The notes beneath the pieces are model-generated. The model did no database searches, was not told where the DNA came from, and saw only the letters and a program-made list of their open reading frames with translations. A DNA stretch of 64,000 nucleotides from Escherichia coli. Its GTDB lineage: Bacteria > Pseudomonadota > Gammaproteobacteria > Enterobacterales > Enterobacteriaceae. This document shows, in pieces, positions 1 through 46,911 of the stretch (within the stretch, counting starts at the first letter, position 1; the number at the start of each line of letters is the position of its first letter). A program made the translations under genes and the position numbers. The stretch is taken from NCBI RefSeq assembly GCF_003334335.1, contig NZ_QOWQ01000011.1. One strand, 5' to 3'.

Positions 1-488
1 GGGCAACCGTCCTCGACCATAGCGGTGCGCCACTGGATGAAAAACAGAAAATGGGCACCGTGGGGGCCGTGGCGTTGGATTTAGACGGCAATTTGGCGGC
101 AGCCACGTCCACAGGCGGAATGACCAATAAATTACCCGGACGAGTTGGCGATAGTCCCTTAGTGGGTGCCGGATGCTACGCCAATAACGCCAGTGTGGCG
201 GTTTCTTGTACCGGCACGGGCGAAGTCTTCATCCGCGCGCTGGCGGCATATGACATCGCCGCGTTAATGGATTACGGCGGATTAAGTCTCGCGGAAGCCT
301 GCGAGCGGGTAGTAATGGAAAAACTCCCTGCGCTTGGCGGTAGCGGTGGCTTAATCGCTATCGACCATGAAGGGAATGTCGCGCTACCGTTTAACACCGA
401 AGGAATGTATCGCGCCTGGGGCTACGCAGGCGATACGCCAACCACCGGTATCTACCGTGAAAAAGGGGACACCGTTGCCACACAGTGA
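1..488 (+). CDS. iaaA: Isoaspartyl dipeptidase / L-asparaginase, C-terminal part (5' end lies outside the window)
   Basis: Open frame from the window edge to TGA at 486..488; translation has the Ntn-hydrolase asparaginase-like stretch ([23 protein letters not shown]); sits immediately upstream of gsiA as in K-12. Confidence 0.85.
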
Positions 489-2346
489 TGAACTTGATGC
501 CGGTAATGTGCTGGCGGTTGAAAATCTGAATATTGCCTTTATGCAGGACCAGCAGAAAATAGCTGCGGTCCGCAATCTCTCTTTTAGTCTGCAACGCGGT
601 GAGACGCTGGCAATTGTTGGCGAATCCGGCTCCGGTAAGTCAGTGACTGCGTTGGCATTGATGCGCCTGTTGGAACAGGCGGGCGGTTTAGTACAGTGCG
701 ATAAAATGCTGTTGCAGCGGCGCAGTCGCGAAGTGATTGAACTTAGCGAGCAGAACGCTGCACAAATGCGCCATGTTCGCGGTGCGGATATGGCGATGAT
801 ATTTCAGGAGCCGATGACATCGCTGAACCCGGTATTTACTGTGGGTGAACAGATTGCCGAATCAATTCGTCTGCATCAGAACGCCAGTCGTGAAGAAGCG
901 ATGGTCGAGGCGAAGCGGATGCTGGATCAGGTACGCATTCCTGAGGCACAAACCATTCTTTCACGTTATCCGCATCAACTCTCTGGCGGGATGCGCCAGC
1001 GAGTGATGATTGCGATGGCGCTGTCATGCCGCCCGGCGGTGCTGATTGCCGATGAGCCAACCACCGCGCTGGATGTCACTATTCAGGCGCAGATCCTGCA
1101 ATTAATCAAAGTATTGCAAAAAGAGATGTCGATGGGCGTTATCTTTATCACTCACGATATGGGCGTGGTGGCAGAGATTGCCGATCGGGTACTGGTGATG
1201 TATCAGGGCGAGGCGGTGGAAACGGGTACCGTCGAACAGATTTTTCATGCACCGCAACATCCTTACACCCGTGCGCTGTTAGCTGCTGTTCCGCAACTTG
1301 GTGCGATGAAAGGGTTAGATTATCCCCGACGTTTCCCGTTGATATCGCTTGAACATCCAGCGAAACAGGCCCCCCCCATCGAGCAGAAAACGGTGGTGGA
1401 TGGCGAACCTGTTTTACGAGTGCGTAATCTTGTCACCCGTTTCCCTTTGCGCAGCGGTTTGTTGAATCGCGTAACGCGGGAAGTGCATGCCGTTGAGAAA
1501 GTCAGTTTTGATCTCTGGCCTGGCGAAACGCTATCGCTGGTGGGCGAGTCTGGCAGCGGTAAATCCACTACCGGGCGGGCGTTGCTGCGCCTGGTCGAAT
1601 CGCAGGGCGGCGAAATTATCTTTAACGGTCAGCGAATCGATACCTTGTCACCCGGCAAACTTCAGGCATTACGCCGGGATATTCAGTTTATTTTTCAGGA
1701 CCCTTACGCTTCGCTGGACCCACGTCAGACCATCGGTGATTCGATTATCGAACCGCTGCGTGTACACGGTTTATTGCCAGGTAAAGACGCGGCTGCACGC
1801 GTTGCGTGGTTGCTGGAGCGCGTGGGCCTGTTACCTGAACATGCCTGGCGTTACCCGCATGAGTTTTCCGGCGGTCAGCGCCAGCGCATCTGCATTGCTC
1901 GCGCGTTGGCATTGAATCCAAAAGTGATCATTGCCGACGAAGCCGTTTCGGCGCTGGATGTTTCTATTCGCGGGCAGATTATCAACTTGTTGCTCGATCT
2001 CCAGCGTGATTTCGGCATTGCGTATCTGTTTATCTCCCACGATATGGCGGTGGTAGAGCGGATTAGTCATCGTGTGGCGGTGATGTATCTCGGGCAAATT
2101 GTTGAAATTGGTCCACGGCGCGCGGTCTTCGAAAACCCGCAGCATCCTTATACGCGTAAATTACTGGCGGCAGTTCCGGTCGCTGAACCGTCCCGACAAC
2201 GACCGCAGCGTGTACTGCTGTCGGACGATCTTCCCAGCAATATTCATCTGCGTGGCGAAGAGGTGGCAGCCGTCTCGTTGCAATGCGTCGGGCCGGGGCA
2301 TTACGTCGCACAACCACAATCAGAATACGCATTCATGCGTAGATAA
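475..2346 (+). CDS. gsiA: Glutathione ABC importer ATP-binding subunit with two tandem ABC domains
   Basis: 623-aa product beginning (M)PHSDELDAG from a TTG at 475; two Walker A motifs (GESGSGKS twice) and two LSGG signatures; overlaps the iaaA 3' end by 14 nt. Confidence 0.9.
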
Positions 2347-2365
2347 CATTCAGGCGGAGAATAAA

Positions 2366-3903
2366 ATGGCAAGAGCTGTACACCGTAGTGGGTTAGTGGC
2401 GCTGGGCATTGCGACAGCGTTGATGGCATCTTGTGCATTCGCTGCCAAAGATGTGGTGGTGGCGGTAGGATCGAATTTCACCACGCTCGATCCGTATGAC
2501 GCAAATGACACGTTATCTCAGCCGTAGCGAAATCGTTTTACCAGGGGCTGTTCGGTCTGGATAAAGAGATGAAACTGAAAAACGTGCTGGCGGAGAGTTA
2601 TACCGTTTCCGATGACGGCATTACTTACACCGTGAAATTGCGGGAAGGCATTAAATTCCAGGATGGCACCGATTTCAACGCCGCGGCGGTGAAAGCGAAT
2701 CTGGACCGGGCCAGCGATCCGGCGAATCATCTTAAACGCTATAACCTGTATAAGAATATTGCTAAAACGGAAGCGATCGATCCGACAACGGTAAAGATTA
2801 CCCTCAAACAGCCGTTCTCAGCGTTTATTAATATTCTTGCCCATCCGGCGACCGCGATGATTTCACCGGCAGCGCTGGAAAAATATGGCAAGGAGATTGG
2901 TTTTTATCCGGTGGGAACCGGACCGTATGAACTGGATACCTGGAATCAGACCGATTTTGTGAAGGTGAAAAAATTCGCGGGTTACTGGCAGCCAGGATTG
3001 CCCAAACTGGACAGCATAACCTGGCGTCCGGTGGCGGATAACAACACCCGCGCGGCAATGCTGCAAACCGGTGAAGCGCAGTTTGCTTTCCCCATTCCTT
3101 ACGAGCAGGCCACACTGCTGGAGAAAAACAAAAATATCGAGTTGATGGCCAGTCCGTCAATTATGCAGCGTTATATCAGTATGAACGTGACGCAAAAGCC
3201 GTTCGATAACCCGAAGGTCCGTGAGGCGCTGAATTACGCCATTAACCGTCCGGCGCTGGTGAAAGTTGCCTTTGCGGGCTATGCAACGCCAGCTACTGGT
3301 GTGGTACCGCCAAGTATCGCCTACGCGCAAAGTTATAAACCGTGGCCTTACGATCCAGTGAAAGCGCGCGAATTACTGAAAGAGGCGGGATATCCCAACG
3401 GTTTCAGTACCACGCTGTGGTCGTCACATAACCACAGCACCGCGCAGAAAGTGCTGCAATTTACCCAGCAGCAGTTAGCGCAGGTCGGGATTAAAGCCCA
3501 GGTGACTGCGATGGATGCCGGACAGCGGGCGGCAGAAGTTGAAGGTAAAGGGCAAAAAGAGAGCGGCGTGCGGATGTTCTACACTGGCTGGTCGGCTTCA
3601 ACCGGCGAAGCGGACTGGGCACTATCGCCGCTGTTTGCCTCGCAGAACTGGCCACCGACGCTGTTTAATACCGCGTTTTACAGCAATAAACAGGTGGATG
3701 ACTTCCTGGCTCAGGCACTGAAAACTAATGATCCGGCGGAAAAGACCCGCTTATATAAGGCGGCGCAGGATATCATCTGGCAAGAATCGCCGTGGATCCC
3801 GCTGGTGGTAGAAAAACTGGTGTCGGCACACAGTAAAAACCTGACCGGTTTTTGGATCATGCCAGACACCGGCTTCAGCTTTGAAGACGCGGATTTGCAA
3901 TAA
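2366..3903 (+). pseudogene. gsiB: Glutathione-binding periplasmic protein gene disrupted by a 1-bp deletion
   Basis: ATG at 2366 with GGAG 8 nt upstream; signal-peptide N-terminus [26 protein letters not shown]; frame ends at TAG 2525..2527 after ...DTLSQP; the rest of the protein continues in the -1 frame (ORF 2569..3903). Restoring one G after 2521 gives continuous [23 protein letters not shown]. Confidence 0.8.
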
Positions 3904-3920
3904 GCAACGCAGGGAGTGGA

Positions 3921-4841
3921 ATGCTTAATTACGTTATCAAACGATTACTGGGGTTGATTCCGACGCTGTTTATCGTCTCGGTGCTGGTGTTTTTATTTGT
4001 CCATATGCTGCCCGGCGATCCGGCGCGATTGATTGCCGGGCCCGAAGCTGATGCGCAGGTTATAGAACTGGTGCGTCAGCAGCTGGGGTTGGATCAGCCG
4101 CTGTATCACCAGTTCTGGCACTATATCAGCAATGCTGTGCAGGGGGATTTTGGCCTGTCGATGGTGTCGCGTCGTCCGGTTGCCGATGAGATTGCCAGCC
4201 GCTTTATGCCAACGCTGTGGCTGACCATAACCAGTATGGTCTGGGCGGTTATATTTGGTATGGCGGCGGGAATTATCGCCGCCGTCTGGCGTAACCGTTG
4301 GCCGGATCGATTGAGTATGACCATTGCGGTGTCGGGGATCTCGTTTCCGGCATTTGCTCTGGGGATGCTTTTAATTCAGGTATTCTCCGTTGAACTGGGC
4401 TGGCTGCCTACCGTGGGAGCAGACAGTTGGCAGCACTACATTTTACCCTCCCTGACGCTCGGCGCGGCAGTGGCCGCCGTGATGGCGCGCTTTACCCGCG
4501 CGTCGTTTGTCGATGTTTTAAGCGAAGATTATATGCGTACCGCGAGGGCGAAAGGGGTGAGCGAAACCTGGGTTGTCCTCAAACACGGGCTACGTAACGC
4601 GATGATCCCGGTAGTGACCATGATGGGCTTACAGTTTGGCTTTTTGCTCGGTGGTTCCATCGTTGTGGAGAAAGTTTTCAACTGGCCGGGACTTGGACGC
4701 TTACTCGTTGACTCCGTAGAAATGCGTGATTACCCGGTGATTCAGGCGGAAATTCTGCTTTTCTCGCTGGAATTTATTCTTATCAACTTAGTGGTGGATG
4801 TGCTTTACGCCGCCATTAACCCGGCTATCAGGTACAAGTAA
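3921..4841 (+). CDS. gsiC: Glutathione ABC importer permease
   Basis: 306-aa ORF, multi-pass membrane protein of the DppB/OppB type, N-terminus [17 protein letters not shown]. Confidence 0.93.
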
Positions 4842-4843
4842 GG

Positions 4844-5755
4844 ATGCGACTATTTAACTGGCGACGTCAGGCGGTGTTAAACGCCATGCCACTGGTCAAA
4901 CCTGACCAGGTACGTACACCGTGGCATGAATTCTGGCGACGATTTCGCCGTCAGCATATGGCGATGACCGCCGCATTATTCGTTATTTTATTGATTGTGG
5001 TGGCCATTTTTGCACGCTGGATCGCTCCCTATGACGCCGAAAATTATTTTGATTATGACAATCTGAATAACGGACCTTCTTTGCAGCACTGGTTTGGCGT
5101 CGATTCACTGGGGCGTGACATTTTCAGCCGTGTCCTGGTTGGTGCGCAAATCTCGCTGGCGGCGGGCGTGTTTGCCGTGTTTATCGGTGCGGCGATCGGG
5201 ACGTTGCTGGGCTTGCTCGCTGGATATTATGAAGGCTGGTGGGATCGGCTGATCATGCGCATTTGCGATGTGCTGTTTGCCTTCCCGGGTATTTTACTGG
5301 CGATCGCTGTTGTTGCGGTGTTGGGAAGCGGCATTGCTAACGTGATTATTGCAGTCGCCATTTTTTCCATCCCCGCGTTTGCCCGCCTGGTGCGCGGCAA
5401 CACGCTGGTGTTGAAACAGCAAACCTTTATTGAGTCAGCACGCAGTATTGGTGCCAGCGATATGACCGTTTTGTTGCGTCATATCCTGCCTGGGACCGTC
5501 TCTTCTATCGTGGTGTTTTTCACCATGCGCATTGGTACCTCGATTATCTCTGCCGCCAGCCTCTCATTTCTCGGCCTCGGTGCGCAGCCGCCGACACCAG
5601 AGTGGGGAGCAATGCTCAATGAGGCTCGAGCGGATATGGTTATCGCGCCGCATGTCGCTGTTTTTCCGGCCCTGGCTATTTTTCTGACCGTACTGGCGTT
5701 CAATTTGTTGGGCGATGGTTTACGCGATGCGCTGGATCCGAAAATTAAAGGATAG
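4844..5755 (+). CDS. gsiD: Glutathione ABC importer permease
   Basis: 303-aa ORF starting 3 nt after the gsiC stop; DppC/OppC-type permease. Confidence 0.93.
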
Positions 5756-5932
5756 TTACGTTTGAATATTGCTTGAAAGGGTAATCACCTCACAGGAAAT
5801 TATTGCCCTAAGCAAGTGTTGTAACTTTCTGCTGATTTTGTAGAATCGGGTAATTTGGTTAAAAAGCCGCAGCAAGGGACAATTTTTGCAGCGGCACAGC
5901 GTTCAGATAGTTATTTTGTTAAATGTATTAAC

Positions 5933-8281
5933 ATGCTGAGTTTATACGAAAAGATAAAGATAAGGCTGATAATTTTATTTTTATTGGCAGCACTGTCATT
6001 TATTGGTCTTTTTTTCATCATTAACTATCAACTGGTATCGGAGCGCGCGGTAAAACGTGCCGATAGCCGCTTTGAACTTATTCAGAAAAACGTTGGCTAT
6101 TTCTTTAAAGATATTGAACGTTCGGCCCTGACATTAAAGGACTCACTGTATTTATTAAAAAATACAGAGGAGATTCAACGCGCCGTGATTCTTAAAATGG
6201 AAATGATGCCATTTTTAGACTCGGTGGGACTGGTACTTGATGATAATAAATATTATCTTTTTTCGCGGAGGGCGAATGATAAAATCGTTGTTTATCATCA
6301 GGAACAAGTAAATGGACCGCTTGTCGACGAGTCAGGGCGGGTTATTTTTGCCGATTTTAACCCATCGAAACGACCGTGGTCGGTGGCTTCAGATGACTCT
6401 AACAACAGCTGGAATCCGGCATACAATTGCTTTGATCGTCCGGGTAAAAAATGTATCTCTTTTACGCTACACATCAACGGCAAAGATCACGATTTGTTAG
6501 CGGTGGATAAAATTCATGTCGATTTAAACTGGCGATATCTGAACGAGTATCTTGATCAAATCAGCGCTAATGATGAAGTTCTATTTTTGAAACAAGGCCA
6601 TGAGATCATTGCCAAGAATCAACTCGCTCGTGAAAAACTGATTATTTATAATAGCGAAGGTAATTATAATATTATTGATTCTGTCGATACTGAATATATC
6701 GAAAAAACATCAGCGGTGCCAAACAACGCATTATTCGAAATCTATTTTTATTATCCTGGCGGTAATTTATTGAACGCATCAGATAAACTTTTTTATCTGC
6801 CGTTTGCGTTCATTATTATCGTATTGCTGGTGGTTTATTTAATGACCACTCGTGTGTTCCGTCGGCAATTTTCTGAAATGACAGAGCTGGTTAATACGCT
6901 GGCGTTTTTGCCTGACTCAACGGATCAAATCGAGGCTCTGAAAATTCGTGAAGGCGATGCGAAAGAGATTATCAGCATCAAAAATTCGATCGCGGAAATG
7001 AAAGATGCCGAAATTGAACGGTCAAATAAATTGCTCTCACTGATCTCTTACGATCAGGAAAGTGGTTTTATTAAAAATATGGCGATTATTGAGTCTAACA
7101 ATAATCAGTATCTGGCTGTGGGGATCATCAAACTGTGTGGTCTGGAAGCCGTGGAAGCGGTGTTTGGTGTTGATGAGCGCAATAAAATCGTCAGGAAATT
7201 GTGTCAGCGAATTGCCGAGAAATATGCGCAATGCTGCGATATCGTGACATTCAATGCCGATCTCTATTTACTTCTGTGTCGGGAAAATGTACAGACATTT
7301 ACCCGTAAAATAGCGATGGTAAACGATTTTGACAGCAGCTTTGGCTACCGCAATCTGCGCATCCATAAGTCTGCCATTTGTGAACCTTTGCAGGGGGAAA
7401 ACGCCTGGAGTTACGCAGAAAAACTGAAACTGGCGATTTCCAGTATCCGTGACCATATGTTCTCAGAGTTTATTTTCTGTGATGACGCGAAACTCAACGA
7501 AATAGAAGAGAATATCTGGATTGCGCGTAATATTCGCCATGCAATGGAAATTGGCGAACTATTCCTCGTCTATCAACCGATCGTTGATATTAACACCCGC
7601 GCCATTCTGGGCGCGGAGGCGTTGTGCCGTTGGGTGTCTGCGGAGCGGGGGATCATTTCACCGCTGAAGTTCATTACCATTGCTGAAGATATCGGGTTTA
7701 TCAATGAGCTGGGTTATCAGATTATTAAAACGGCAATGGGTGAATTCAGACATTTTAGTCAGCGTGCGTCGCTGAAGGATGATTTCTTACTGCATATTAA
7801 TGTTTCGCCCTGGCAGTTAAACGAACCACACTTTCATGAGCGTTTTACCACCATCATGAAAGAAAATGGCCTGAAGGCGAACAGCCTCTGTGTTGAGATC
7901 ACTGAAACCGTGATCGAGCGAATTAATGAACATTTTTATCTCAATATTGAACAACTGCGTAAACAAGGGGTACGGATATCGATTGATGACTTTGGCACCG
8001 GTTTGTCAAACCTGAAACGTTTTTATGAAATTAATCCAGACAGCATAAAGGTGGACTCGCAATTCACCGGCGATATTTTCGGTACTGCGGGAAAAATTGT
8101 GCGCATTATTTTCGACCTGGCACGCTATAACCGGATCCCGGTGATTGCGGAAGGCGTAGAGAGCGAAGACGTTGCGCGCGAATTAATCAAATTAGGATGT
8201 GTTCAGGCTCAGGGGTATCTGTACCAGAAACCCATGCCATTCTCCGCCTGGGATAAAAGTGGAAAATTAGTAAAAGAGTAG
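5933..8281 (+). CDS. pdeI: c-di-GMP phosphodiesterase with periplasmic sensor region and C-terminal EAL domain
   Basis: 782-aa product from ATG 5933 ([10 protein letters not shown]...); the ORF track extends 26 codons further upstream to 5855; EAL-domain signatures (EALCRW, QPIVD) in the C-terminal half. K-12 name yliE. Confidence 0.88.
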
Positions 8282-8288
8282 TTTACGT

Positions 8289-9617
8289 ATGTCCAGAATC
8301 AATAAGTTCGTACTTACAGTCAGTCTGCTGATTTTTATCATGATTTCAGCAGTTGCCTGCGGGATCTACACTCAAATGGTAAAGGAACGGGTGTATAGCC
8401 TGAAACAGTCCGTTATTGATACTGCTTTTGCGGTGGCAAATATTGCTGAATATCGGCGTAGCGTGGCAATTGATCTTATCAACACGCTAAATCCCACGGA
8501 GGAACAGCTGTTGGTTGGTTTGCGCACAGCTTACGCCGACTCGGTTTCCCCCTCTTATTTGTACGATGTCGGTCCTTATCTGATTTCCAGTGACGAATGT
8601 ATTCAGGTAAAGGAGTTCGAGAAAAATTATTGTGCAGATATTATGCAGGTTGTGAAGTATCGACATGTCAAAAATACAGGGTTTATCTCTTTTGACGGTA
8701 AAACCTTCGTCTATTACCTCTATCCGGTAACTCACAATCGTAGTCTGATATTTTTGCTTGGTCTGGAGCGTTTTTCTTTACTGTCAAAATCGCTGGCGAT
8801 GGACAGCGAGAACCTGATGTTCTCTCTATTTAAGAACGGTAAACCGGTGACCGGTGATGAATATAATGCTAAAAACGCCATCTTCACCGTTTCGGAAGCG
8901 ATGGAGCACTTCGCCTATTTGCCGACCGGATTGTATGTATTTGCGTATAAAAAAGATGTTTATTTGCGGGTTTGTACATTGATTATTTTCTTTGCCGCAT
9001 TGGTGGCAGTGATATCGGGTGCCAGTTGCCTCTATCTGGTACGCAGAGTGATTAATCGTGGTATTGTGGAGAAAGAAGCCATCATTAATAACCATTTTGA
9101 ACGCGTACTGGATGGCGGGCTTTTCTTTTCGGCTGCCGATGTCAAAAAACTCTACAGTATGTATAACTCGGCGTTCCTGGACGACCTGACCAAAGCAATG
9201 GGCAGAAAATCCTTTGACGAAGATTTAAAAGCGCTGCCGGAAAAAGGCGGTTATTTGTGCCTGTTTGACGTCGATAAATTCAAAAACATTAACGACACCT
9301 TCGGTCATTTGCTGGGCGATGAAGTGTTGATGAAAGTGGTGAAAATCCTTAAATCACAGATCCCGGTAGATAAAGGTAAAGTCTACCGCTTCGGCGGTGA
9401 CGAATTTGCGGTGATTTATACGGGTGGAACGCTGGAAGAGTTGCTATCGATTCTAAAAGAAATCGTTCATTTCCAGGTGGGAAGCATTAATTTAAGTACC
9501 AGTATCGGTGTAGCACATTCAAATGAATGTCCTACCGTCGAACGCTTGAAAATGCTGGCGGATGAGCGGCTGTATAAGAGTAAGAAAAACGGCAGGGCAC
9601 AGATTAGCTGGCAGTAA
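8289..9617 (+). CDS. dgcI: Membrane-anchored diguanylate cyclase (GGDEF domain)
   Basis: 442-aa ORF 7 nt downstream of pdeI; C-terminal RFGGDEF motif. K-12 name yliF. Confidence 0.9.
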
Positions 9618-9627
9618 TCATTATTCG

Positions 9628-9657
9628 CAGGCCGGACAAATGATTTTGCCCGGCCTG
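9628..9657. terminator. Hairpin between convergent dgcI and rimO, likely bidirectional terminator
   Basis: Inverted repeat caggccgg (9628..9635) / ccggcctg (9650..9657) around a T-rich loop, in the 46-bp gap between two convergent stops. Confidence 0.5.
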
Positions 9658-9663
9658 AATTAA

Positions 9664-10989
9664 TTAAACCCGGCTACCCCACAAATCGTACTCATCGGCG
9701 TGCTCGACTTTCACACGCAGGATATCACCCGGCTTAACGTTGGTTTCACCATTGAGATAAACCGCGCCGTCGATTTCCGGTGCATCTGCCATGCTGCGAC
9801 CAATCGCGCCTTCTTCGTCCACTTCGTCGATAATCACCAGAATTTCACGGCCCACTTTCTCTTGCAGGCGCTCGGCGGAAATCTGCTGCTGCAGCTGCAT
9901 GAAACGGTTCCAGCGTTCTTCTTTAACTTCTTCCGGAACCTGGTCAGGCAGGGCATTGGCGTCTGCACCTTCAACCGGGCTGTATTTAAAGCAGCCAACG
10001 CGATCCAGACGCGCTTCTTTCAGGAAGTCGAGTAGCATCTGGAAATCTTCTTCTGTCTCGCCAGGGAAGCCGACAATAAAGGTTGAGCGTAGGGTCAGTT
10101 CCGGGCAGATTTCGCGCCACTGTTTGATGCGCGCCAGTTGGCGATCTACAGAACCCGGACGCTTCATCAGTTTGAGAATGCGCGGGCTGGCGTGCTGCAA
10201 CGGAATGTCCAGATACGGCAGGATTTTGCCTTCTGCCATCAGTGGGATGACGTCGTCCACATGCGGATAAGGGTAAACGTAGTGCAGACGTGTCCAGATC
10301 CCCAGTTTCGATAACTGTTCGCACAGGCTGACCATGCTGGTTTTTACCGGCTCGCCGTTGTGGAAGCCAGTACGATGTTTAACATCAACGCCATAGGCGG
10401 AAGTATCCTGCGAGATCACCAGAATCTCTTTAACGCCCGCATCTACCAGACGTTTCGCTTCACTTAACACTTCGCCAATCGGACGGCTCACCAGGTCGCC
10501 GCGCATAGACGGAATAATGCAGAAGGTGCAGCGGTGATTACAGCCTTCAGAAATTTTCAGATAGGCATAATGACGCGGCGTCAGTTTCACACCTTGTTCT
10601 GGCACCAGGCTCAGGAATGGGTTGTGTTTCGGTTTTGGCACGTAGTGATGAACGTGCTCCAGAACCTGCTCATAGCTATGAGGCCCGGTGATTTCCAGCA
10701 CTTTCGGGTGGACTTCGCGGATCTGATCTTCTTTTGCCCCCAGACAACCGGTCACAATAACCTTGCCGTTTTCATTCAACGCTTCACCAATGGCTTCCAG
10801 TGATTCTTGTACCGCGCTGTCAATAAAGCCGCAGGTGTTGACGATCACCATGTCCGCATCGTCATAGCTCGGTACCACGTCATAACCTTCAGTGCGGAGT
10901 TCGGTGAGAATACGCTCTGAATCAACAAGGTTTTTCGGACAGCCAAGGGAAACAAAGCCGATTTTCGGCTGGGGAGTTACTTTGCTCAT
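9664..10989 (-). CDS. rimO: Ribosomal protein S12 methylthiotransferase (radical SAM)
   Basis: 441-aa ORF; radical-SAM CxxxCxxC (CNHRCTFC) and N-terminal MTTase cysteines (GCPKN...NTCGF). Confidence 0.95.
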
Positions 10990-11201
10990 AGCTTAAAAAA
11001 TATTCAGTTACAGGAAAGGTCAGGGCAGGGATTCTACAGAGTTCTGGATAAAATTTGTATCGCAATCTCATTCGCTGGCGGAGGCGAAGGAAATGTAAAT
11101 TTTGTTAATTCGGCGTGAAGAATTGATCCTGGACAGCATTTTGCTCAAAAAATAGCCATACTATTTAATTGCAACAAGGCTGGGAAGAGGAGGATCGAAG
11201 T

Positions 11202-11585
11202 ATGTTCGTTGACAGACAGCGAATCGATCTGCTGAACCGGTTGATCGACGCACGCGTTGACCTCGCCGCATACGTGCAACTGAGGAAGGCAAAAGGATAC
11301 ATGTCCGTCAGCGAAAGCAATCATCTACGAGATAACTTTTTTAAACTGAATCGCGAACTGCACGATAAATCGCTGCGGTTGAATCTTCATCTGGATCAGG
11401 AAGAGTGGAGTGCTCTTCATCATGCTGAAGAAGCATTAGCGACAGCCGCAGTATGTTTGATGAGTGGGCACCATGATTGCCCGACTGTTATTACCGTCAA
11501 CGCCGATAAGCTTGAAAATTGTCTGATGAGCTTAACGCTGAGTATCCAGAGCCTGCAGAAGCACGCCATGCTTGAGAAGGCCTGA
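11202..11585 (+). CDS. bssR: Biofilm regulator BssR
   Basis: 127-aa product from ATG 11202 (MFVDRQRIDLLNR...), GAGGAGGA Shine-Dalgarno at 11187..11194; ORF track starts at an upstream TTG. Confidence 0.9.
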   Translation: MFVDRQRIDLLNRLIDARVDLAAYVQLRKAKGYMSVSESNHLRDNFFKLNRELHDKSLRLNLHLDQEEWSALHHAEEALATAAVCLMSGHHDCPTVITVNADKLENCLMSLTLSIQSLQKHAMLEKA

Positions 11586-11590
11586 AAACT

Positions 11591-11630
11591 AAGGGGGAGA
11601 AAGCGTCTCCCCCTTCATGTTTAAGTTTTT
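11591..11630 (+). terminator. Rho-independent terminator after bssR
   Basis: Stem agggggaga / tctccccct followed by a T-rich tract ending tttaagttttt. Confidence 0.6.
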
Positions 11631-11695
11631 GTAAAAATGAATTTGTTATCTCCTCCACTGACTACGCTTTAAGCCAGAGTCAATCCGGAGGCGTT

Positions 11696-12811
11696 ATGCA
11701 TCGACAATCCTTTTTCCTTGTGCCCCTTATTTGTCTTTCTTCCGCTCTCTGGGCGGCTCCTGCAACGGTAAATGTCGAAGTACTGCAAGACAAACTCGAC
11801 CATCCCTGGGCACTGGCCTTTTTACCCGATAATCACGGTATGTTAATCACTCTGCGCGGCGGCGAGTTGCGTCACTGGCAAGCAGGAAAAGGATTATCTG
11901 CGCCGCTTTCCGGAGTTCCGGACGTTTGGGCGCACGGGCAGGGCGGCCTGCTGGACGTGGTTTTAGCGCCTGATTTTGCTCAGTCTCGCCGCATCTGGTT
12001 AAGTTATTCCGAAGTTGGCGATGATGGCAAAGCCGGAACTGCTGTGGGTTATGGCCGCTTAAGTGATGATCTCTCAAAAGTGACCGACTTCCGCACCGTC
12101 TTTCGCCAGATGCCAAAACTGTCTACCGGCAACCATTTTGGCGGGCGGCTGGTATTCGACGGTAAAGGTTATCTTTTTATTGCTCTGGGCGAAAACAATC
12201 AGCGCCCGACGGCGCAGGATCTGGATAAATTACAGGGCAAACTGGTGCGTCTGACCGACCAGGGCGAAATCCCGGATGATAATCCTTTTATAAAGGAATC
12301 CGGTGCGCGCGCCGAGATCTGGTCTTATGGCATTCGTAATCCGCAAGGAATGGCGATGAATCCGTGGAGTAATGCACTGTGGCTGAATGAACATGGCCCG
12401 CGCGGTGGTGATGAAATTAATATCCCGCAAAAAGGCAAAAACTACGGCTGGCCGCTGGCAACCTGGGGAATCAACTATTCAGGCTTTAAGATACCGGAAG
12501 CGAAAGGGGAGATCGTCGCCGGGACCGAGCAACCTGTTTTTTACTGGAAAGATTCGCCCGCTGTGAGCGGCATGGCCTTCTATAACAGCGATAAATTCCC
12601 CCAGTGGCAGCAAAAATTATTTATTGGCGCGCTGAAAGATAAAGATGTCATTGTGATGAGCGTCAACGGCGACAAAGTGACAGAAGATGGCCGTATTTTA
12701 ACGGACAGAGGGCAGCGAATTCGTGATGTTCGCACTGGACCCGACGGTTATTTATACGTTCTCACCGACGAGTCCAGTGGGGAATTACTTAAAGTTAGCC
12801 CACGCAATTAG
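11696..12811 (+). CDS. yliI: Soluble aldose sugar dehydrogenase (PQQ-dependent, periplasmic)
   Basis: 371-aa ORF with N-terminal signal peptide; recognised as K-12 YliI. Confidence 0.92.
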
Positions 12812-36905: not shown

Positions 36906-37421
36906 TTAGCGATTCTCGATGGACTGACGGAGCGTACCCGCCGTGGCATGAACGCTACCGCCTAAGTAACGCACATCGTCGATGACCCAACACTGGCCTT
37001 CCTGAATCATTAACACTTCATCCTGCCAACCCTGGTCACCCTGTTTGAGATCCACGCGCAATGGAATGTTACGGGCATCACGATTAGGGATAGTCGATGC
37101 ACTGGCAACGTGGGCGCTATCTGGCAAGGTGGTTCGACTGGAGAATGGATCGTTGGTCAGTAGTTCCCGATGGTTATTATCCCGGGAGGCATCGCTAAGC
37201 AGTGTCGCCAGTTTGTCGCTCAGATAAGGGCGCAAGGCGGTGATGTCGTTGCTGCGGTGCAAAATGCGGTAGTCATAAAATTGCTGGGCCACGTTATCCG
37301 GGCCTCCTTCAACGCAAGGACCACTGCGTGTGCCGTTATCTTTATAAGCTGGAGTGACTGTGGTGCAGGCACTGAGGAGCAGTGCGCAGGGGATAAGCAT
37401 TGTCAATTTGCTGTAGCGCAT
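36906..37421 (-). CDS. ybjP: Lipoprotein of unknown function
   Basis: 171-aa ORF with lipobox LLSAC at the end of the signal peptide. Confidence 0.88.
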   Translation of the reverse strand: MRYSKLTMLIPCALLLSACTTVTPAYKDNGTRSGPCVEGGPDNVAQQFYDYRILHRSNDITALRPYLSDKLATLLSDASRDNNHRELLTNDPFSSRTTLPDSAHVASASTIPNRDARNIPLRVDLKQGDQGWQDEVLMIQEGQCWVIDDVRYLGGSVHATAGTLRQSIENR

Positions 37422-37546
37422 AATGATTTCCTTATAAGCGATCGCTCTGAAAGCGTTCTACGATAATAATGATATCCTTTCAATAATAGCGTATCAGTCT
37501 GATAATGCTTTTGAGATCGAAGGCTTAGCAAACAAGGAGATCGATC

Positions 37547-37870
37547 ATGCAATTTTCTACAACCCCAACTCTGGAAGGCCAGACCATCGTTGAATATTGC
37601 GGTGTGGTGACCGGCGAAGCGATTTTAGGTGCCAATATTTTCCGTGATTTCTTTGCCGGTATCCGCGATATCGTTGGCGGACGTTCCGGTGCGTATGAAA
37701 AAGAACTGCGTAAAGCACGGGAGATCGCCTTTGAGGAATTAGGCTCCCAGGCGCGGGCGCTGGGGGCCGATGCCGTCGTCGGTATTGATATCGACTACGA
37801 AACGGTCGGGCAAAACGGCAGTATGCTGATGGTTAGCGTCAGCGGTACGGCGGTGAAAACGCGTCGATGA
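37547..37870 (+). CDS. ybjQ: UPF0145 family protein
   Basis: 107-aa ORF ([21 protein letters not shown]...). Confidence 0.88.
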
Positions 37871-38697
37871 GAAGATTCTTCTGGCTGGTCGCTGCCGCTC
37901 TGTTATTGGCAGGGTGTGCAGGCGAAAAAGGCATTGTCGAGAAAGAGGGATATCAGCTTGATACCCGACGCCAGGCGCAGGCGGCGTATCCGCGCATTAA
38001 AGTGCTGGTGATCCACTACACCGCAGATGATTTTGATAGCTCGCTGGCGACACTGACCGATAAGCAGGTCAGCTCGCATTATCTGGTCCCTGCGGTACCA
38101 CCGCGATACAACGGTAAACCGCGCATCTGGCAACTGGTGCCGGAACAAGAACTGGCCTGGCATGCGGGGATTAGCGCCTGGCGCGGGGCAACGCGCCTTA
38201 ACGACACCTCTATTGGCATTGAGCTGGAAAACCGTGGCTGGCAAAAATCGGCCGGAGTGAAATATTTTGCCCCGTTTGAACCGGCACAGATTCAGGCGCT
38301 TATTCCACTGGCGAAAGATATTATTGCCCGTTATCACATCAAGCCGGAAAACGTAGTGGCACATGCGGATATCGCACCGCAGCGCAAAGACGATCCGGGG
38401 CCATTATTTCCCTGGCAGCAACTGGCGCAGCAGGGGATTGGTGCCTGGCCGGATGCGCAGCGGGTTAACTTTTACCTTGCCGGGCGCGCGCCGCACACAC
38501 CGGTAGATACCGCGTCATTGCTGGAGCTTTTGGCGCGCTACGGTTATGACGTTAAACCTGATATGACACCGCGCGAGCAGCGGCGCGTGATTATGGCATT
38601 CCAGATGCATTTCCGCCCGACGTTATATAACGGCGAAGCGGATGCAGAAACTCAGGCGATTGCCGAAGCATTGCTGGAGAAATACGGGCAGGATTAG
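37867..38697 (+). CDS. amiD: N-acetylmuramoyl-L-alanine amidase lipoprotein
   Basis: 276-aa ORF, lipobox LLAGC; ATGA overlap with the ybjQ stop. Confidence 0.92.
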
Positions 38698-39707
38698 CGC
38701 GGCAGTTTTCCGTGGTCGCGTAGCCAGGCGGCAGTTTTCTCGATACCTTCATCCAGGGTGATGACCGGCTGATAACCTAACTCTTCCTGCGCACGCGTAA
38801 TATCTAGCGTAAAGTCAAAATTCAACTTGGAGACGCCGTAGTGGGTCAGCGGCGGCTCTTTTGCTGACTTGCGGCCTAAACGCTCCATGCTGCGGGCGAT
38901 CATATCCAGCATCGGGTAGGGGACGGAACGAATACGACAGTCAATATTCAACTCGTCGATCAGCTTCTGCACGATGCTGCGCAGTGTGCGATGCTCGCCG
39001 TTGGTGATGTTGTACACACGCCCGGAAGGTAGCTTATCGCAGGCTTCCTGGCTTGCCAGCCACATTGCGTGCACGGCATTTTCATAGTAGGTCATATCGA
39101 CCAGCGCACTGCCGCCATGCGGTAACAGAATACTGCCGTAGTGGTGCATCATATGCGCCAGACGGGGAATAAAGACTTTATCGTGCGGTCCGAACAGACT
39201 TTGTGGGCGCAGAATAGTAAAGCGCGTTTGTGGATTCGCCTGCGAAAGCATATTGATCACTTCTTCGCTGGCTGCTTTGCTGCGGGCAAACTCGTTGGCG
39301 AAGCGGTGAGGGCGAAAATCTTCTTTAATATCGCGATGGTGGTGATAATCGAAGTACAGGGAGGGGGAAGAGATATGAATAAAGTTACGCACACCCCAGG
39401 CGACAGCCCATTCACCCAGGCGGCGAGTGGCGCGAACGTTAGCCAGATCGAAAGCCTGTTGTGTCCCCCAGGGTGAGGTAAAGCTGGAGCAGTGCCACAG
39501 CGTATCAATGCCCGCGAGCATCACTTTAGCTTGTGATGAAACCAGCTCGGTCAGATCCGCCGGAACAAACTCTGCGCCCATTTTTTCCAGCAATTTGCCC
39601 ATTGCCTCGTTGCGACCGGTCGCTCGCACGCTGATGCCTTTCTGGCATAAAAACTCTACCGCGTTTCGACCTAAGCCGCTGGTGGCGCCGGTAACCAGTA
39701 CCTTCAT
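38694..39707 (-). CDS. ybjS: NAD(P)-dependent epimerase/dehydratase-family protein
   Basis: 337-aa product from ATG 39707 ([19 protein letters not shown]...), Rossmann GxxGxxG; stop overlaps the amiD stop in a TTAG. Confidence 0.88.
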
Positions 39708-39805
39708 ATCAATCCACTGTTGTTGAGAAAATAACGTGCGCATTCTTCCGTGATTTCCCCCATGATGCAATGGGAAACATGAAAGAATAACGCAGGTTTT
39801 GTCGA

Positions 39806-41236
39806 TTAATCTGTGCTTTGTTCTGCCAGTCTGGCGATTTGTTTTGCCATTCCGCGAAAAATAAACAGATGCGCGGGGATCATCAATAACCAGTAAAACA
39901 GCCCCGGCATACCGTGCGGATGCCAGAAAGCGCGGACATCGATAGTACGATAGTCGCCTTTATCTTCCAGGCTAAAACACAGTCGTCCCAGCCCCGGCGC
40001 TTTCATGCCAAATAACAACGTAAGTTGTTTTTCCGGTTCAACGACAATCACTTTCCAGCTATCCACCGCATCGCCAGTCTGTAAATATTCGCGCTCCGGG
40101 CGGCCTTTCGCCAGCTTATGACCGATCGCGCGGTCCATCAACGCCCGTGTCTGCCACAAAATATTGCCAAAGAAATAACGCTCTTTACCGCCGATTTGGT
40201 TCACTACCTGCCATAAAGCAGCAAGGCTGGCGGACGTTTTAACGGTAAACCCCGCCTGTTTGGCAAAATAACCGTACTCCGGTCGCCAGCGGGCAAAGGC
40301 CTGAGCGTCGTAGCCCCAGTCGCTGGAGTTGACCAGTTTTTCCTCCTCTTTCAACGTGCTACGTACCGCGTCATCGAAAGCGATCAGCCGTTGTGGGATG
40401 AGTGCACGTAGCGCGGTATCATCCGCCAGCAGATCGTGTTTCAGCCCCTGAATCAACGCCCTGGCGGTGGTGGGCGGTACGGAAGTAATCACATTGAGAA
40501 ACCACACCGAAATCCAGCGGGTGGGGAGGGGGATGGGGATCAACCAGCGGCGCTTACCGCTCACCGCCATAAAATGTTCAAACTGTTGCTGATAACTGAG
40601 CACCTCTGGTCCGGCGGCTTCGAAGATGCGGTGTTCGCTGGCCGGATGATCTAACAACGCAACCAGATAGTGCAGCAAGTTTTCCAGCGCAATGGGCGTG
40701 GTGCGTGAACGAACCCAGCGCGGAGGCGTTAAGACTGGCAGGTTGTAGACCATATCGCGCATGACTTCGAACGCCGCGGAACCTGCGCCAACGATAATTC
40801 CGGCCCGCAGTTCGGTCACGGGTACATTCGCTTCACGCAGAATGTCCGCCGTAGCCTGACGAGCACGCAGATGATCCGACTGCTCATGTGGCGGGGCCTG
40901 CAACGAACTAAGAAAGATTAATTGCTTAACTGGTACTTCACGTAGCGCATCGCGGACGTTGAGAGCCACCTGGCGCTCCTGAGCGATAAAATCGCCGCCT
41001 TCGCCCATGCTGTGCACCAGAAAATAGACCGTATCGATATCCTGCAACAGGGCCGGTAGGTTATCCGGCCAGCTGAGATCGACTTTATGGCAACTGACGT
41101 TTGCCAGTTGCAGCTTTGCAAGCCTGTCGACATGACGTGCCGCCGCCAGGATCTGATGCCCTTGCTGGCTGAGTGTGCGCACCAGATGCTGACCAATGTA
41201 GCCACTGGCACCGAGAACTAAAATGCGTTGCGGCAC
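39806..41236 (-). CDS. ybjT: NAD(P)-binding protein with C-terminal DUF2867 domain
   Basis: 476-aa product from GTG 41236 ((M)[17 protein letters not shown]...), Rossmann motif. Confidence 0.85.
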
Positions 41237-41246
41237 GTCTCTCTCC

Positions 41247-42248
41247 TTAACGCGCCAGGAATGCACGCCAGTGGGCGGCGACTTCCGCCAGTTGTTCGCG
41301 CGAGACGTCAAGATGCGTCACCAGGCGGACAATCGGCGAGGCGTTAATCAGCACGTTTCTCGCTTTCATGTATTCGCCTAACGCGGCAGCATTTTCTTCC
41401 CCGACGCGAACAAACAGCATATTGGTGTCCTGACGCATCACATCCGCGCCTGCTTCACGCAGCTGCTCCGCCATCCAGGCAGCGTTGTCGTGGTCTTCCT
41501 GCAAGCGCGCAACGTTATTTTTCAGGGCATATATCCCGGCGGCAGCCAGAATGCCGGACTGGCGCATCCCGCCACCTGTCATTTTCCGCCAGCGAATGGC
41601 ACGTTTAATGTAATCACGATTACCGACGAGTAATGAACCGACTGGCGTCCCAAGACCTTTCGACAGGCAAATGGTGAACGAATCACAATATTGCGTGATC
41701 TCTTTCAGTTCGCAGCCGTAAGCCACCACGGCATTAAAGATGCGCGCACCGTCAACATGCAGCGCCAGATTGCGCTCGCGGGTAAATTCCCATGCTTCTT
41801 TCAGGTATTCCCGCGGCAACACTTTGCCGTTGTGGGTGTTTTCCAGACTGAGTAATTTGGTGCGGGCGAAATGGATATCGTCGGGTTTGATTTTCATCGC
41901 CACTTTATCCAGCGGTAGCGTGCCGTCGGCAGCCGCGTCTATGGGTTGCGGTTGAATACTGCCCAGCACCGCCGCGCCACCGGCTTCAAACAGATAGTTA
42001 TGCGCGGCCTGACCGACAATATACTCTTCGCCGCGTTCGCAGTGACTGAGCAGAGCGACCAGGTTGGCCTGAGTGCCGGTAGGCAGAAAAATGGCGGCTT
42101 CTTTACCGGAAAGCTCTGCTGCGTAGTCCTGCAGAGCATTAACGGTAGGGTCGTCTCCGTAAACGTCGTCCCCAACCGGGGCGGCCATCATCGCTTCGAG
42201 CATGGCGCGGCTTGGTCGGGTAACGGTATCACTGCGTAAATCAATCAT
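41247..42248 (-). CDS. ltaE: Low-specificity L-threonine aldolase
   Basis: 333-aa ORF, N-terminus [21 protein letters not shown]. Confidence 0.93.
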
Positions 42249-42284
42249 GGCATGTCCTTATTATGACGGGAAATGCCACCCTTT

Positions 42285-44003
42285 TTACCTTAGCCAGTTT
42301 GTTTTCGCCAGTTCGATCACTTCATCACCGCGTCCGCTGATGATTGCGCGCAGCATATACAGGCTGAAACCTTTGGCCTGTTCGAGTTTGATCTGCGGTG
42401 GAATGGCTAACTCTTCTTTGGCGACCACCACATCCACCAACACCGGACCGTCGATGGAGAAGGCGCGTTGCAGGGCTTCATCAACTTCAGACGCTTTTTC
42501 TACACGGATACCCGTAATGCCGCACGCTTCGGCAATGCGGGCAAAGTTTGTGTCGTGTAGTTCGGTGCCGTCAGTCAAATAGCCACCAGCTTTCATCTCC
42601 ATCGCCACAAAGCCCAGCACGCTGTTGTTAAAGACGACAATTTTCACTGGCAGTTTCATCTGCACTACTGAGAGGAAATCGCCCATCAACATGCTAAAAC
42701 CGCCATCGCCGCACATGGCGACCACCTGACGTTCTGGCTCTGTCGCCTGCGCACCCAGCGCCTGCGGCATGGCGTTAGCCATCGAACCGTGGTTAAACGA
42801 ACCTAACAGGCGACGCTTGCCGTTCATTTTTAGATAACGTGCCGCCCACACCGTTGGCGTACCAACGTCACAGGTGAAAATAGCGTCATCGGCGGCAAAA
42901 TGACTAATTTGCTGCGCCAGATATTGCGGGTGAATGGCTTTCTCGCTCGGTTTAGCTAAATCGTCCAGCCCTTTGCGGGCGTCGCGGTAATCTTCCAGCG
43001 CTTTATCCAGAAACTTGCGATCGGCTTTTTCTTCCACCAATGGAAGCAATGCACGCAGAGTCGACTTGATATCGCCGACCAGTGCCATATCCACCTTGCT
43101 GTGAGCGCCGATGCTGGCTGGGTTGATATCAATCTGAATGATTTTGGCATCGGTCGGGTAGAAGGCGCGGTAGGGAAATTGCGTGCCGAGTAGCACTAAC
43201 GTGTCGGCGTTCATCATGGTATGGAAACCTGACGAGAAGCCGATTAACCCGGTCATTCCAACATCATACGGATTATCGTATTCGACATGTTCTTTACCGC
43301 GCAGGGCATGAACAATAGGCGCTTTAATTTTCCCGGCAAACTCAACTAACTCTTTATGCGCCCCCGCGCAGCCGCTGCCACACATCAGGGCGATATTGCT
43401 GGAATAACGCAGCAGTTGCGCCAGTTTGCGTAACTCTTCTTCTTCCGGCGTCACGACTGGTTGTGGCGCATGATACCAGTGCATGGTTGCCCCTTCTGGC
43501 GCAGGTTTTAACGCCACGTCGCCTGGTAACACGACAACCGAAACGCCACGGTTAAGCACCGCTTTGCGCATGGCAATCGCCAGTACTTGTGGGATCTGCT
43601 CCGGGCTGGAAACCAGCTCGCAATAGTGACTACATTCGCGGAATAGCTCTTGTGGGTGGGTTTCCTGGAAATAGCCGCTGCCAATTTCGCTGGAGGGAAT
43701 ATGAGCGGCAATCGCCAGTACCGGAACGTGATTGCGGTGGCAATCGAACAGGCCGTTGATTAAGTGCAGGTTGCCGGGGCCGCACGATCCGGCGCAGACC
43801 GCCAGTTCTCCGCTAAGTTGTGCTTCAGCGCCAGCGGCAAAGGCCGCCACTTCTTCGTGGCGGGTGGACATCCACTCGATGGTGCCCATGCGATTAAGAC
43901 TGTCACTAAGACCGTTCAGAGAGTCGCCTGTGACTCCCCAGATGCGTTTCACCCCTGCCGATTCGAGTGTTTTGGCGATATAAGCTGCAACCGTTTGTTT
44001 CAT
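42285..44003 (-). CDS. poxB: Pyruvate oxidase (ubiquinone), TPP/FAD enzyme
   Basis: 572-aa ORF, N-terminus [31 protein letters not shown]. Confidence 0.95.
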
Positions 44004-44135
44004 GGTTCTCCATCTCCTGAATGTGATAACGGTAACAAGTTTAGTTCATCTGACGGAGGGGGAAGGGATGGGAGAGAAAGGAGGCACTAACGGTTAAATA
44101 GCCCGATGAAAGGAATATCATCGGGCATAAGGCGA

Positions 44136-45104
44136 TTATGCGAGAACCAAATCCCCCTGCGGATGGCAGGAGCAGGCCAGTACGTAACCTTCAGCGATTT
44201 CGGCGTCGGTCAGCGTCATTGTGCTGCTCACCGTATATTCACCGGAAACCACTTTTGTCTTACAGCAGCCGCAAACACCCGCACGGCAGGCAGCGACAAC
44301 CGGAACGTTATTGCTTTCCAGCGCCTCCAGTAGCGTGGTGCCAACCGGGGCGTAAAATTCTCGTGCCGGTTGCAGTTTGGTGAATTTCAGACCGCTGGTC
44401 GCCGCTTCTGCTACTGGGGTGAAGAATTTCTCTTTAAAGAAACGCGTCACGCCGAGCGCTTTCACTTCCTGCTCTACCCAATCCATATACGGAGCCGGGC
44501 CGCAGGTCATCACGGTACGTGAAGCTAAGTCAGGTACACCTGCCAGCAGTTCGCGAGTGAGACGACCAGCGATAAAGCCTTCGGTAACGTTATTTTCTGC
44601 CACCAGCGTTACCGGATAGTTACGCCACTCATCGGCGAAAATAACATCCTGCGGCGTACGCACGTTGTAGATCACCCGCACATCGGCCTGTGGACGGTTC
44701 TTCGCAAGCCAGCGACGCATCGACATAATCGGCGTGACGCCGCAGCCTGCCGCCAGCAACAGGAATTTATCTTCTGCTTTATCGTCGCAGGTAAATTCCC
44801 CCATCGCGTCCGAAAGCCAGAGATAATCACCGCGTTTTACATCGCGCGTCAGCCACTGGGAGCCGACACCGTCATCAATCCGCCGCACGGTCAGGGTGAT
44901 ATATTCACTCACGCCTGGCGTGGAGGAAATGGTGTAAGCACGCAGCGTTTCCGCTGAGTTTCGCACGCTGACCAGTGCATATTGCCCGGCGCGATATGGG
45001 TAGTAATCGTGGCAAATCAGGGAAATCGTCCACACATCCGGCGTTTCTTGCGTAATGTGATGAACCTGCATCCGCCACGGGCATTGATTCGTTGGCATCG
45101 TCAT
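44136..45104 (-). CDS. hcr: NADH oxidoreductase for hybrid-cluster protein (FAD/2Fe-2S)
   Basis: 322-aa product from ATG 45104; C-terminal ferredoxin cysteines (CRAGVCGCC). Confidence 0.92.
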   Translation of the reverse strand: MTMPTNQCPWRMQVHHITQETPDVWTISLICHDYYPYRAGQYALVSVRNSAETLRAYTISSTPGVSEYITLTVRRIDDGVGSQWLTRDVKRGDYLWLSDAMGEFTCDDKAEDKFLLLAAGCGVTPIMSMRRWLAKNRPQADVRVIYNVRTPQDVIFADEWRNYPVTLVAENNVTEGFIAGRLTRELLAGVPDLASRTVMTCGPAPYMDWVEQEVKALGVTRFFKEKFFTPVAEAATSGLKFTKLQPAREFYAPVGTTLLEALESNNVPVVAACRAGVCGCCKTKVVSGEYTVSSTMTLTDAEIAEGYVLACSCHPQGDLVLA

Positions 45105-45115
45105 CGACAAACTCC

Positions 45116-46768
45116 TTACGCGCTCAACAGTTGCTTCATGTCTTCTTCAACAGTGGTGATAGAACGCAGGCCGAATTTCTCGTTCAGCACCGCCAGCAGG
45201 TCTGGTGTCAGGAAACCAGGTGCAGTCGGGCCGGTGACGATATTTTTCACGCCCAGAGAAAGCAGCGTCAGCAGAATGACGATCGCTTTCTGTTCAAACC
45301 AGGAGAGCACCAGCGACAGCGGCAGATCGTTGACACCGCAGCCCAGTTTCTCTGCCAGAGTGACAGCCAGAATAATCGCTGAGTAAGCATCGTTACATTG
45401 ACCTGCATCTACCAGACGCGGCAGACCTTCGATATCGCCAAACTCAAGTTTGTTAAAGCGATATTTACCACAGGCGAGGGTCAGGATCAGGCAGTCATCC
45501 GGCACGCTGGTGGCGAAATCGGTGAAGTAGTGGCGCTCGCCGCGTGCGCCGTCACAGCCACCAAGCAGGAAGATATGACGCAGTTTTTCACGGCTCACCA
45601 GATCAATCAGCGTATCAGCAGCGCCAAGCAGCGTCTGGCGACCAAAACCCACGGTGATAAGGTGCGGAATTTCGCTGTACGGGAAGCCTGCCATCTGTTG
45701 CGCCTGGGTGATAACCGCAGAGAAATCATCACCGTCCAGATGACGCACGCCAGGCCAGCCAACAATGCTGCGGGTCCAGATACGATCGTCATAAGCGCCT
45801 ACGGTTGGGTCGATGATGCAGTTCGAGGTCATCACGATGGGGCCAGGGAAACGAGCGAACTCCACTTGCTGATTCTGCCAGCCGCTGCCGTAGTTACCGA
45901 CCAGATGCTTGAATTTACGCAGCTCCGGGTAGCCATGCGCAGGCAGCATTTCGCCGTGGGTGTAGACATTAACGCCCGTGCCTTCGGTCTGTTCCAGCAG
46001 GTTGTAGAGATCTTTGAGATCGTGACCGGAAATCAGAATGCATTTACCCGCCGTCGCTTTGACGTTGACCTGGGTTGGCGTCGGGTGACCGTATTTACCG
46101 GTTTCGCCTGCATCCAGAATGCTCATCACTTTGAAGTTCATCTGGCCGATTTCCATTGAACACTCAAGAAGCGCGTTCATATCGGCAGGCCAGGTCCCCA
46201 GCCACGCCATGATTTTATGGTACTGGGCATAAATATCGTTGTCGTATTGACCGAGAACATGCGCGTGTTCCATATAGGCCGCCGCACCTTTCAGGCCATA
46301 CAGGCACAGCAGACGCAGGCCGAGAATGTTTTCGCCAATCGCCGCTTTATCTTTGTTAGGGGTAAATTCTGCTGCCTGACGTTGCAGCTCGCCGAGATCG
46401 TCGCTCACCAGTTGCAGGTCAGCCATCGGGTTATCGACGCGCGCGTTGGCATCTACAGCCAGGCATTGCGCTTTCAGCGCCTCGCGCAGGGCAATCGCTT
46501 CACGAGCGTAGCCGACAATACGCGGAGAATCGAAGTTAACGTTGGTCAGGGTTGAGAAAAAGGCACGTGGCGCGAAGCTGTCAACATCGTGGTTGATGAT
46601 GCCGTATTCACGCGCTTTTACCGCCCAGGCAGAAAGCCCTTGCAGCGCCGCGATGAGTAAATCCTGAAGGTCAGAAGTTTCCGCCGTTTTACCACACATC
46701 CCCTGCGCGTATGAGCAGCCGTTTCCTGCCGGAGTACGGATAGTTTGTTCACATTGCACACAAAACAT
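45116..46768 (-). CDS. hcp: Hybrid-cluster protein (NO reductase / hydroxylamine reductase)
   Basis: 550-aa product from ATG 46768 ([20 protein letters not shown]...), N-terminal cysteine cluster. Confidence 0.93.
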
Positions 46769-46864
46769 GATCACACCTTTTAAAGTTATATTTAATATAC
46801 ATGTTTAAGGTTAAGACGCTTAACGCGGGGATAAAAGGGATTTTTCATGCAACTTTAAGGGAGA

Positions 46865-46878
46865 TTGATTTAGCGCAA
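46865..46878 (-). promoter_or_regulatory. FNR-like half-palindrome upstream of hcp
   Basis: TTGAT-N4-CGCAA, partial match to FNR consensus TTGAT-N4-ATCAA, about 100 nt upstream of the hcp start codon; hcp is anaerobically induced in K-12. Confidence 0.25.
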
Positions 46879-46911
46879 TTTTGGCGGCAGGGATCTACCG
46901 CCAGAGAGGTA

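Follow-up and report, generated by a model that had tools for sequence, protein, structure and literature searches.

The closest described counterpart of the locus reported here is GsiB of Escherichia coli K-12 (YliB, b0830; PDB 1UQW), the periplasmic binding protein of the ABC importer GsiABCD, whose operon has the order iaaA-gsiA-gsiB-gsiC-gsiD. Import through Gsi requires GsiB (PMC6236770). The Gsi system imports mainly glutathione disulfide and the Opp system imports reduced glutathione, and the binding proteins of the two systems exhibit no cross-talk with the permease of the other (PMC11719327). A single ΔgsiB mutant grows normally on glutathione as the sole sulfur source, with Ggt compensating for the loss (PMC6236770). 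ΔgsiB alone leaves the trimethoprim MIC of W3110 unchanged, and susceptibility is altered only in a ΔcydD background (PMC8672908).

The window (the whole 64-kb stretch of E. coli DNA analysed here) carries the same locus in the same operon order, and its gsiB nucleotides are identical to those of K-12 save for one G. As a consequence of this one difference, the frame is broken at codon 53 and normal translation would yield no full-length protein. Specifically, direct reading of the sequence places the gsiB start at ATG 2366-2368 and follows the codons ACG TTA TCT CAG (2519-2521) and CCG (2522-2524) into TAG (2525-2527). Translation of 2366-2527 gives a 53-residue stub with the C-terminus ...DANDTLSQP. 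Translation of 2521-3903 encounters no internal stop and ends ...FEDADLQ at the normal stop codon (3901-3903), such that the -1 frame carries the rest of gsiB, about 459 codons (codons 53-512), without interruption. On its 5' side this downstream frame is closed by a TGA at 2506-2508, and it is therefore open only from 2509.

Aligned base by base, the MG1655 reference (NC_000913.3) has GTTATCTCAGGCCGTAGCGAA where the window has GTTATCTCAGCCGTAGCGAA. The reference CAGGCC has become CAGCC, which is a change from GG to G at window 2521/2522, and the absent G corresponds to reference position 869567. Because the missing G is the sole difference between this gsiB and that of MG1655, the pseudogene is recent. 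When the G is put back, a continuous 512-aa protein results, which in a profile search spans positions 1-512 of 512 of the GsiB equivalog NCBIfam NF011942 with 1158.5 bits (the curated cut-off is 594 bits) and which matches PDB 1UQW ('putative binding protein YliB') at E = 0. The unrepaired products divide this profile between them, with the stub covering positions 1-52 and the 444-aa ORF covering positions 69-512. The locus therefore corresponds to gsiB both in sequence and in genomic context but lacks an uninterrupted frame from signal peptide to binding domain, and it is a gsiB pseudogene rather than a functional gsiB (Table 1).

These results bear directly on a sequence-only reading of the same DNA, which had placed the gsiB start at ATG 2366, the end of its frame at CCG TAG and the remainder of the gene in the -1 frame, and had ascribed the break to the loss of one G from a GG dinucleotide. 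Reading and translation confirm the first claim, and the alignment to MG1655 gsiB, a comparison which that reading had itself proposed, upholds the second. Its further proposal that one added G would restore a 512-codon frame is borne out by the full-length profile match of the repaired protein.

Table 1. Features of the gsi locus in the window. Positions count from the first nucleotide of the 64-kb stretch.
Feature	Position	Strand	Remarks
gsiA, ATP-binding subunit, intact	475..2346	+	Coordinates from the MG1655 annotation; no difference from MG1655
Shine-Dalgarno-like GGAG	2356..2359	+	6 nt upstream of the gsiB ATG; read directly; same in MG1655
Truncated gsiB frame	2366..2527	+	53 codons plus TAG; signal-peptide region, 26 mature residues and one out-of-frame Pro
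Putative signal peptide	2366-2443 (about codons 1-26)	+	Inferred from basic N-terminus, hydrophobic core, AFA|A and the known K-12 GsiB
1-bp deletion site	2521..2522	+	Single G (2521) versus GG in MG1655; frame moved -1
Premature TAG	2525..2527	+	Two codons past the deletion
gsiB remainder, codons 53-512 plus stop	2521..3903	+	Intact in the -1 frame; nucleotides identical to MG1655
Longest remaining ORF, 444 aa from Met69	2569..3903	+	Starts 42 nt past the premature stop, at the first ATG/GTG/TTG of the downstream frame
gsiC, permease, intact	3921..4841	+	One synonymous change at 3944, R8 CGC>CGA
gsiD, permease, intact	4844..5755	+	From ORF list and MG1655 comparison

The lesion stands alone in its surroundings. 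The window is colinear with MG1655 NC_000913.3 867046-931047, and base-by-base comparison reveals 11 differences in the 64 kb, namely the missing G and 10 substitutions. Four of the substitutions are synonymous (gsiC R8, potG R187, artQ L111 and ybjS L301), five are missense (ybjH A62S, lysO I292L, macA A222T, cydC R2H and cydC Q385L), and one is intergenic and lies upstream of aqpZ. The nine coding substitutions are at window positions 3944, 18001, 28503, 34874, 38805, 46938, 52852, 60996 and 62145. None of the 10 substitutions in the window makes a stop or abolishes a start, in agreement with the earlier claim that every other gene of the window is full length and that the gsiB lesion is isolated.

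Two details of these surroundings deserve mention in their own right. The longest gsiA ORF (367-2346) would encode 659 aa from ATG 367, whereas the annotated start at 475 gives 623 aa; the longer frame, with its 36 extra codons, runs over the 3' end of iaaA. The same ORF exists in MG1655, and thus this is a detail of annotation and not a difference between the two sequences. The intergenic substitution, at window position 49009, falls in the leader of aqpZ (minus strand), 8 nt ahead of the start of this gene at 49001; the leader reads TTGTGGTGGATATG in K-12 and TTGAGGTGGATATG in the window. The window version is the better Shine-Dalgarno match (GAGG) and is also present in A14 and in four other natural isolates. 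At this leader, K-12 looks like the outlier, with what appears from its sequence to be the weaker site.

Judged by these comparisons, the window is from a phylogroup-A E. coli that is very close to K-12. The first 25 kb are nearest to the K-12 family, from which they differ by 2 SNPs and the deletion, and for the middle and last 25 kb, natural phylogroup-A isolates (such as FDAARGOS_1337, A14 and NCTC9041) are slightly nearer than K-12. The window was also considered as a K-12 laboratory derivative with many new mutations, and this was rejected because the last 25 kb are better matched by natural phylogroup-A isolates. The alleles MacA T222 and CydC H2/L385 are widespread in nature (at least 1,000 contigs each), and natural polymorphism therefore accounts for most of what separates the window from MG1655. 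The rare alleles in the window are 3944A, 18001A, 34874A, 38805T and 46938G. Window 36912-48144 recurs without any difference in the draft assembly GCA_002190205.1, including the rarer 38805T and 46938G.

Two further genomes were set aside during these comparisons. K-12 AG100 was rejected as a carrier of the window's variants, which it lacks; its top score came from an insertion in ybjL that splits the alignment. In AG100 (NZ_LN832404.1, L002 ~23190; window-equivalent 22689) this insertion is 168 bp long and ybjL is annotated as an incomplete pseudogene, whereas ybjL in the window is intact. A14 (NZ_CP028760.1) was rejected as a colinear reference for the distal part because a P2-like prophage adjoins its ybjL, and it served for allele states only. 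This prophage (L029, 1-20933) sits at the rcdA/rybB side of ybjL, where the window has no prophage.

If every other gene is intact, then is the missing G a property of the strain or only of its assembly? A base-calling, assembly or polishing error would mean that the gsiB gene of this strain is intact. In favor of such an error, a 120-nt query across the site finds matches in all 5,426 complete RefSeq E. coli genomes without a single exact match. The best identity is 99.2% (120/121), the GG pair is retained, and the deletion occurs in 0 of the 5,426. Also in favor of an error, gsiB is split in several further public assemblies that are plainly noisy (L007, L009, L010, L012 and L014), as their additional indels in gsiA and a GGGG run show. 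However, a GG pair is not a long homopolymer and its context is not error-prone, and the assembly is not a noisy one, given that this is its only indel relative to MG1655 in 64 kb.

Evidence against an error also comes from independent read sets. The 53-aa stub is a query specific to this lesion, and an exact-peptide look-up shows that public sequencing runs assembled in Logan encode it. Contig SRR1815430_48 (42,024 nt, Logan) encodes the stub and is shared by 5 samples. It matches window 1-12527 at 100% identity and so has both the deletion and 3944A, a SNP otherwise private to the window. A 20-kb Logan contig from SRR32903638 has the deletion as well, but carries 3944C. SRR1815430 and SRR32903638 also agree in having C instead of T at K-12 position 867006, which lies shortly before the window begins. 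The deletion-bearing Logan contigs are L004 and L005/L008. No Logan source was found for YbjH A62S, which the window carries, and this suggests, without proving it, that SRR1815430 represents a third, intermediate haplotype and not the same isolate as the window. One Logan run may derive from the window's own isolate; the haplotype of SRR32903638 differs, however.

An artefact should not be reproducible in independent read sets, yet this deletion recurs on different linked haplotypes, in short-read sets that were assembled separately (SRR1815430, together with the four samples that share its contig, and SRR32903638), and the linked SNPs in these read sets are nested. Because the deletion resides on nested haplotypes, with and without the neighbouring SNP, the allele is inherited. 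This pattern of variants fits one mutation that was passed on and then joined by additional SNPs. The allele is also rare, given that it is absent from the 5,426 complete genomes and from JGI metagenome contigs, where a deletion-bearing 33-mer has 0 matches; the protein collection likewise gives no NCBI assembly as a source of the stub. Given the recurrence on nested haplotypes, the GG context and the lack of other indels, we consider a sequence error very unlikely. Whereas the sequence-only reading had left the choice between real mutation and error open, the independent read sets with their nested SNPs resolve it toward a real one. Very probably, a genuine, inherited and lineage-restricted 1-bp deletion (GG to G, codon 53) has made gsiB a recent pseudogene. 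More generally, an exact-peptide look-up of a frameshift stub in read-level assemblies offers a way to distinguish real indels from assembly errors without the original reads.

A genuine deletion might nevertheless be tolerated if the gene still worked, either through a programmed -1 ribosomal frameshift, through transcriptional slippage, or through a functional product reinitiated at Met69. A -1 slip after CAG, with its G read again as part of GCC, would recreate the exact wild-type protein sequence, and ATG 2569 lies just 42 nt past the stop. The features that ordinarily accompany a programmed -1 frameshift, which are a slippery heptamer, a stimulatory structure and conservation among orthologues, are all missing at this site. 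The sequence UCU CAG CCG UAG contains no X XXY YYZ heptamer. The RNA from 2505-2600, folded in a pseudoknot-free model, has a predicted minimum free energy of -21.2 kcal/mol; shuffled sequences average -21.84 (z = 0.20), and 111 of 200 of them fold at least as stably. No Rfam match was found at E <= 1, and a promoter and terminator scan yielded results at chance level. Furthermore, the frameshift is not conserved, in that all 5,426 complete E. coli genomes are in frame at this position.

Slippage by the polymerase is no better favored, since the G/GG tract is far too short for it. The same is true of phase variation. Contingency loci vary by way of a homopolymer or short tandem repeat of roughly 7 units or more, and the tract here has two Gs in the wild type and one in the window. 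With regard to reinitiation, a product that begins at Met69 would have no signal peptide and would be 42 residues short at the mature N-terminus, and the sole Shine-Dalgarno-like motif, AAGAG, is only 1 nt before ATG 2569. Taken together, a gsiB that still works by any of these routes is scarcely credible.

If the deletion is genuine and is not bypassed, then what should it mean for the cell? Translation from the normal start would stop at codon 54, yielding the signal peptide and 27 further residues, and the ligand-binding body (SBP_bac_5 fold, PDB 1UQW) would not be produced. The Met69 start could at most give a cytoplasmic fragment. Without its periplasmic binding protein, the GsiACD translocator would receive no substrate, and import through Gsi, mainly of glutathione disulfide, would be lost. 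It is also possible that the 1.38-kb stretch left untranslated causes Rho-dependent polarity on gsiC and gsiD. Thus, the allele should be null for GsiB, both with respect to the protein and with respect to transport. The earlier claim that the importer is non-functional without GsiB is in keeping with this predicted null and with published experiments (PMC6236770; PMC11719327).

Regardless, we infer that the phenotype is mild, as Opp and Ggt would remain if they are present in this strain (their genes lie outside the window). Because ΔgsiB strains grow normally, with Ggt compensating and Opp taking up reduced glutathione, growth on glutathione as the sole sulfur source would not reveal the defect. 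The predicted loss of Gsi-mediated glutathione disulfide import is relevant for work on redox or glutathione uptake with such strains, and a change in growth is not expected. For annotation, the locus is best entered as a frameshifted gsiB pseudogene, with no functional binding protein assigned to the 444-aa ORF.

Other gsiB lesions are found in public data. Two K-12-like contigs of 42,025 nt (L006/L011; Logan SRR31599127 and SRR30670886) have a CAG>TAG change that creates a Q60 amber codon (window-equivalent ~2542) and a 59-aa stub, and thus represent an independent gsiB knockout that is either natural or engineered. In a natural isolate (L015; GCA_958328395.1), IS1 has inserted near gsiB codon ~40 (window-equivalent ~2494) with the target duplication CTCGATCCG, which constitutes a third independent route to gsiB inactivation. 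In addition, the GGGG run at 2545-2548 within gsiB has gained or lost one G in public assemblies L009, L010, L012, L013 and L014. Most of these indels are probably long-read errors, given that most of those assemblies also have homopolymer indels in gsiA. This run is the type of site at which an artefact would be a plausible explanation.

The existence of parallel lesions raises the prospect that loss of gsiB is adaptive, with selection acting via altered recycling of periplasmic glutathione and its disulfide on redox balance or drug susceptibility. If true, the advantage to this lineage, and to the few others with early gsiB lesions of their own, would come from ending the re-import of periplasmic glutathione disulfide, which would change envelope redox balance or drug susceptibility. 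The allele has persisted while more SNPs accumulated, early gsiB lesions have arisen independently elsewhere (the Q60 amber of L006/L011, the added G of L013 and the IS1 of L015), and ΔgsiB does alter trimethoprim susceptibility when combined with ΔcydD (PMC8672908). Such lesions are very rare, however. The 444-aa product is encoded on about 80 contigs among 15 billion proteins, the deletion described here is found in none of the 5,426 complete genomes, and ΔgsiB alone produces neither a growth phenotype (PMC6236770) nor an MIC phenotype (PMC8672908). A literature search on gsiB as a pseudogene returned nothing relevant. Rare parallel lesions of gsiB do not amount to evidence of selection, and we regard an adaptive loss as very unlikely.

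As noted above, full-length GsiB could be obtained from the window only by reading two frames, and in this respect alone the locus is reminiscent of the programmed frameshift genes dnaX (-1) and prfB (+1). In contrast to those genes, the window site has no slippery sequence, no stimulatory structure and no conserved frameshift. Nearer in consequence are the engineered ΔgsiB nulls (Keio JW5111; ΔGsiB, PMC6236770; W3110 ΔgsiB, PMC8672908), which show what is to be expected when gsiB is null: they lose Gsi-dependent import, and they grow normally on glutathione sulfur unless ggt is deleted too. The engineered alleles are clean deletions or cassettes, whereas the window retains 1.38 kb of coding sequence that would go untranslated, with the polarity on gsiCD that this may bring.

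The best match, however, is provided by the ordinary 'frameshifted' pseudogenes of E. coli and Shigella, which likewise consist of a single-base indel, a premature stop and otherwise undecayed sequence, and which are likewise restricted to particular lineages. There is no essential difference between those pseudogenes and the gsiB allele of the window, which is merely missing from complete RefSeq genomes. In this regard, the locus is an ordinary, strain-specific and recent pseudogene of a well-characterised gene.
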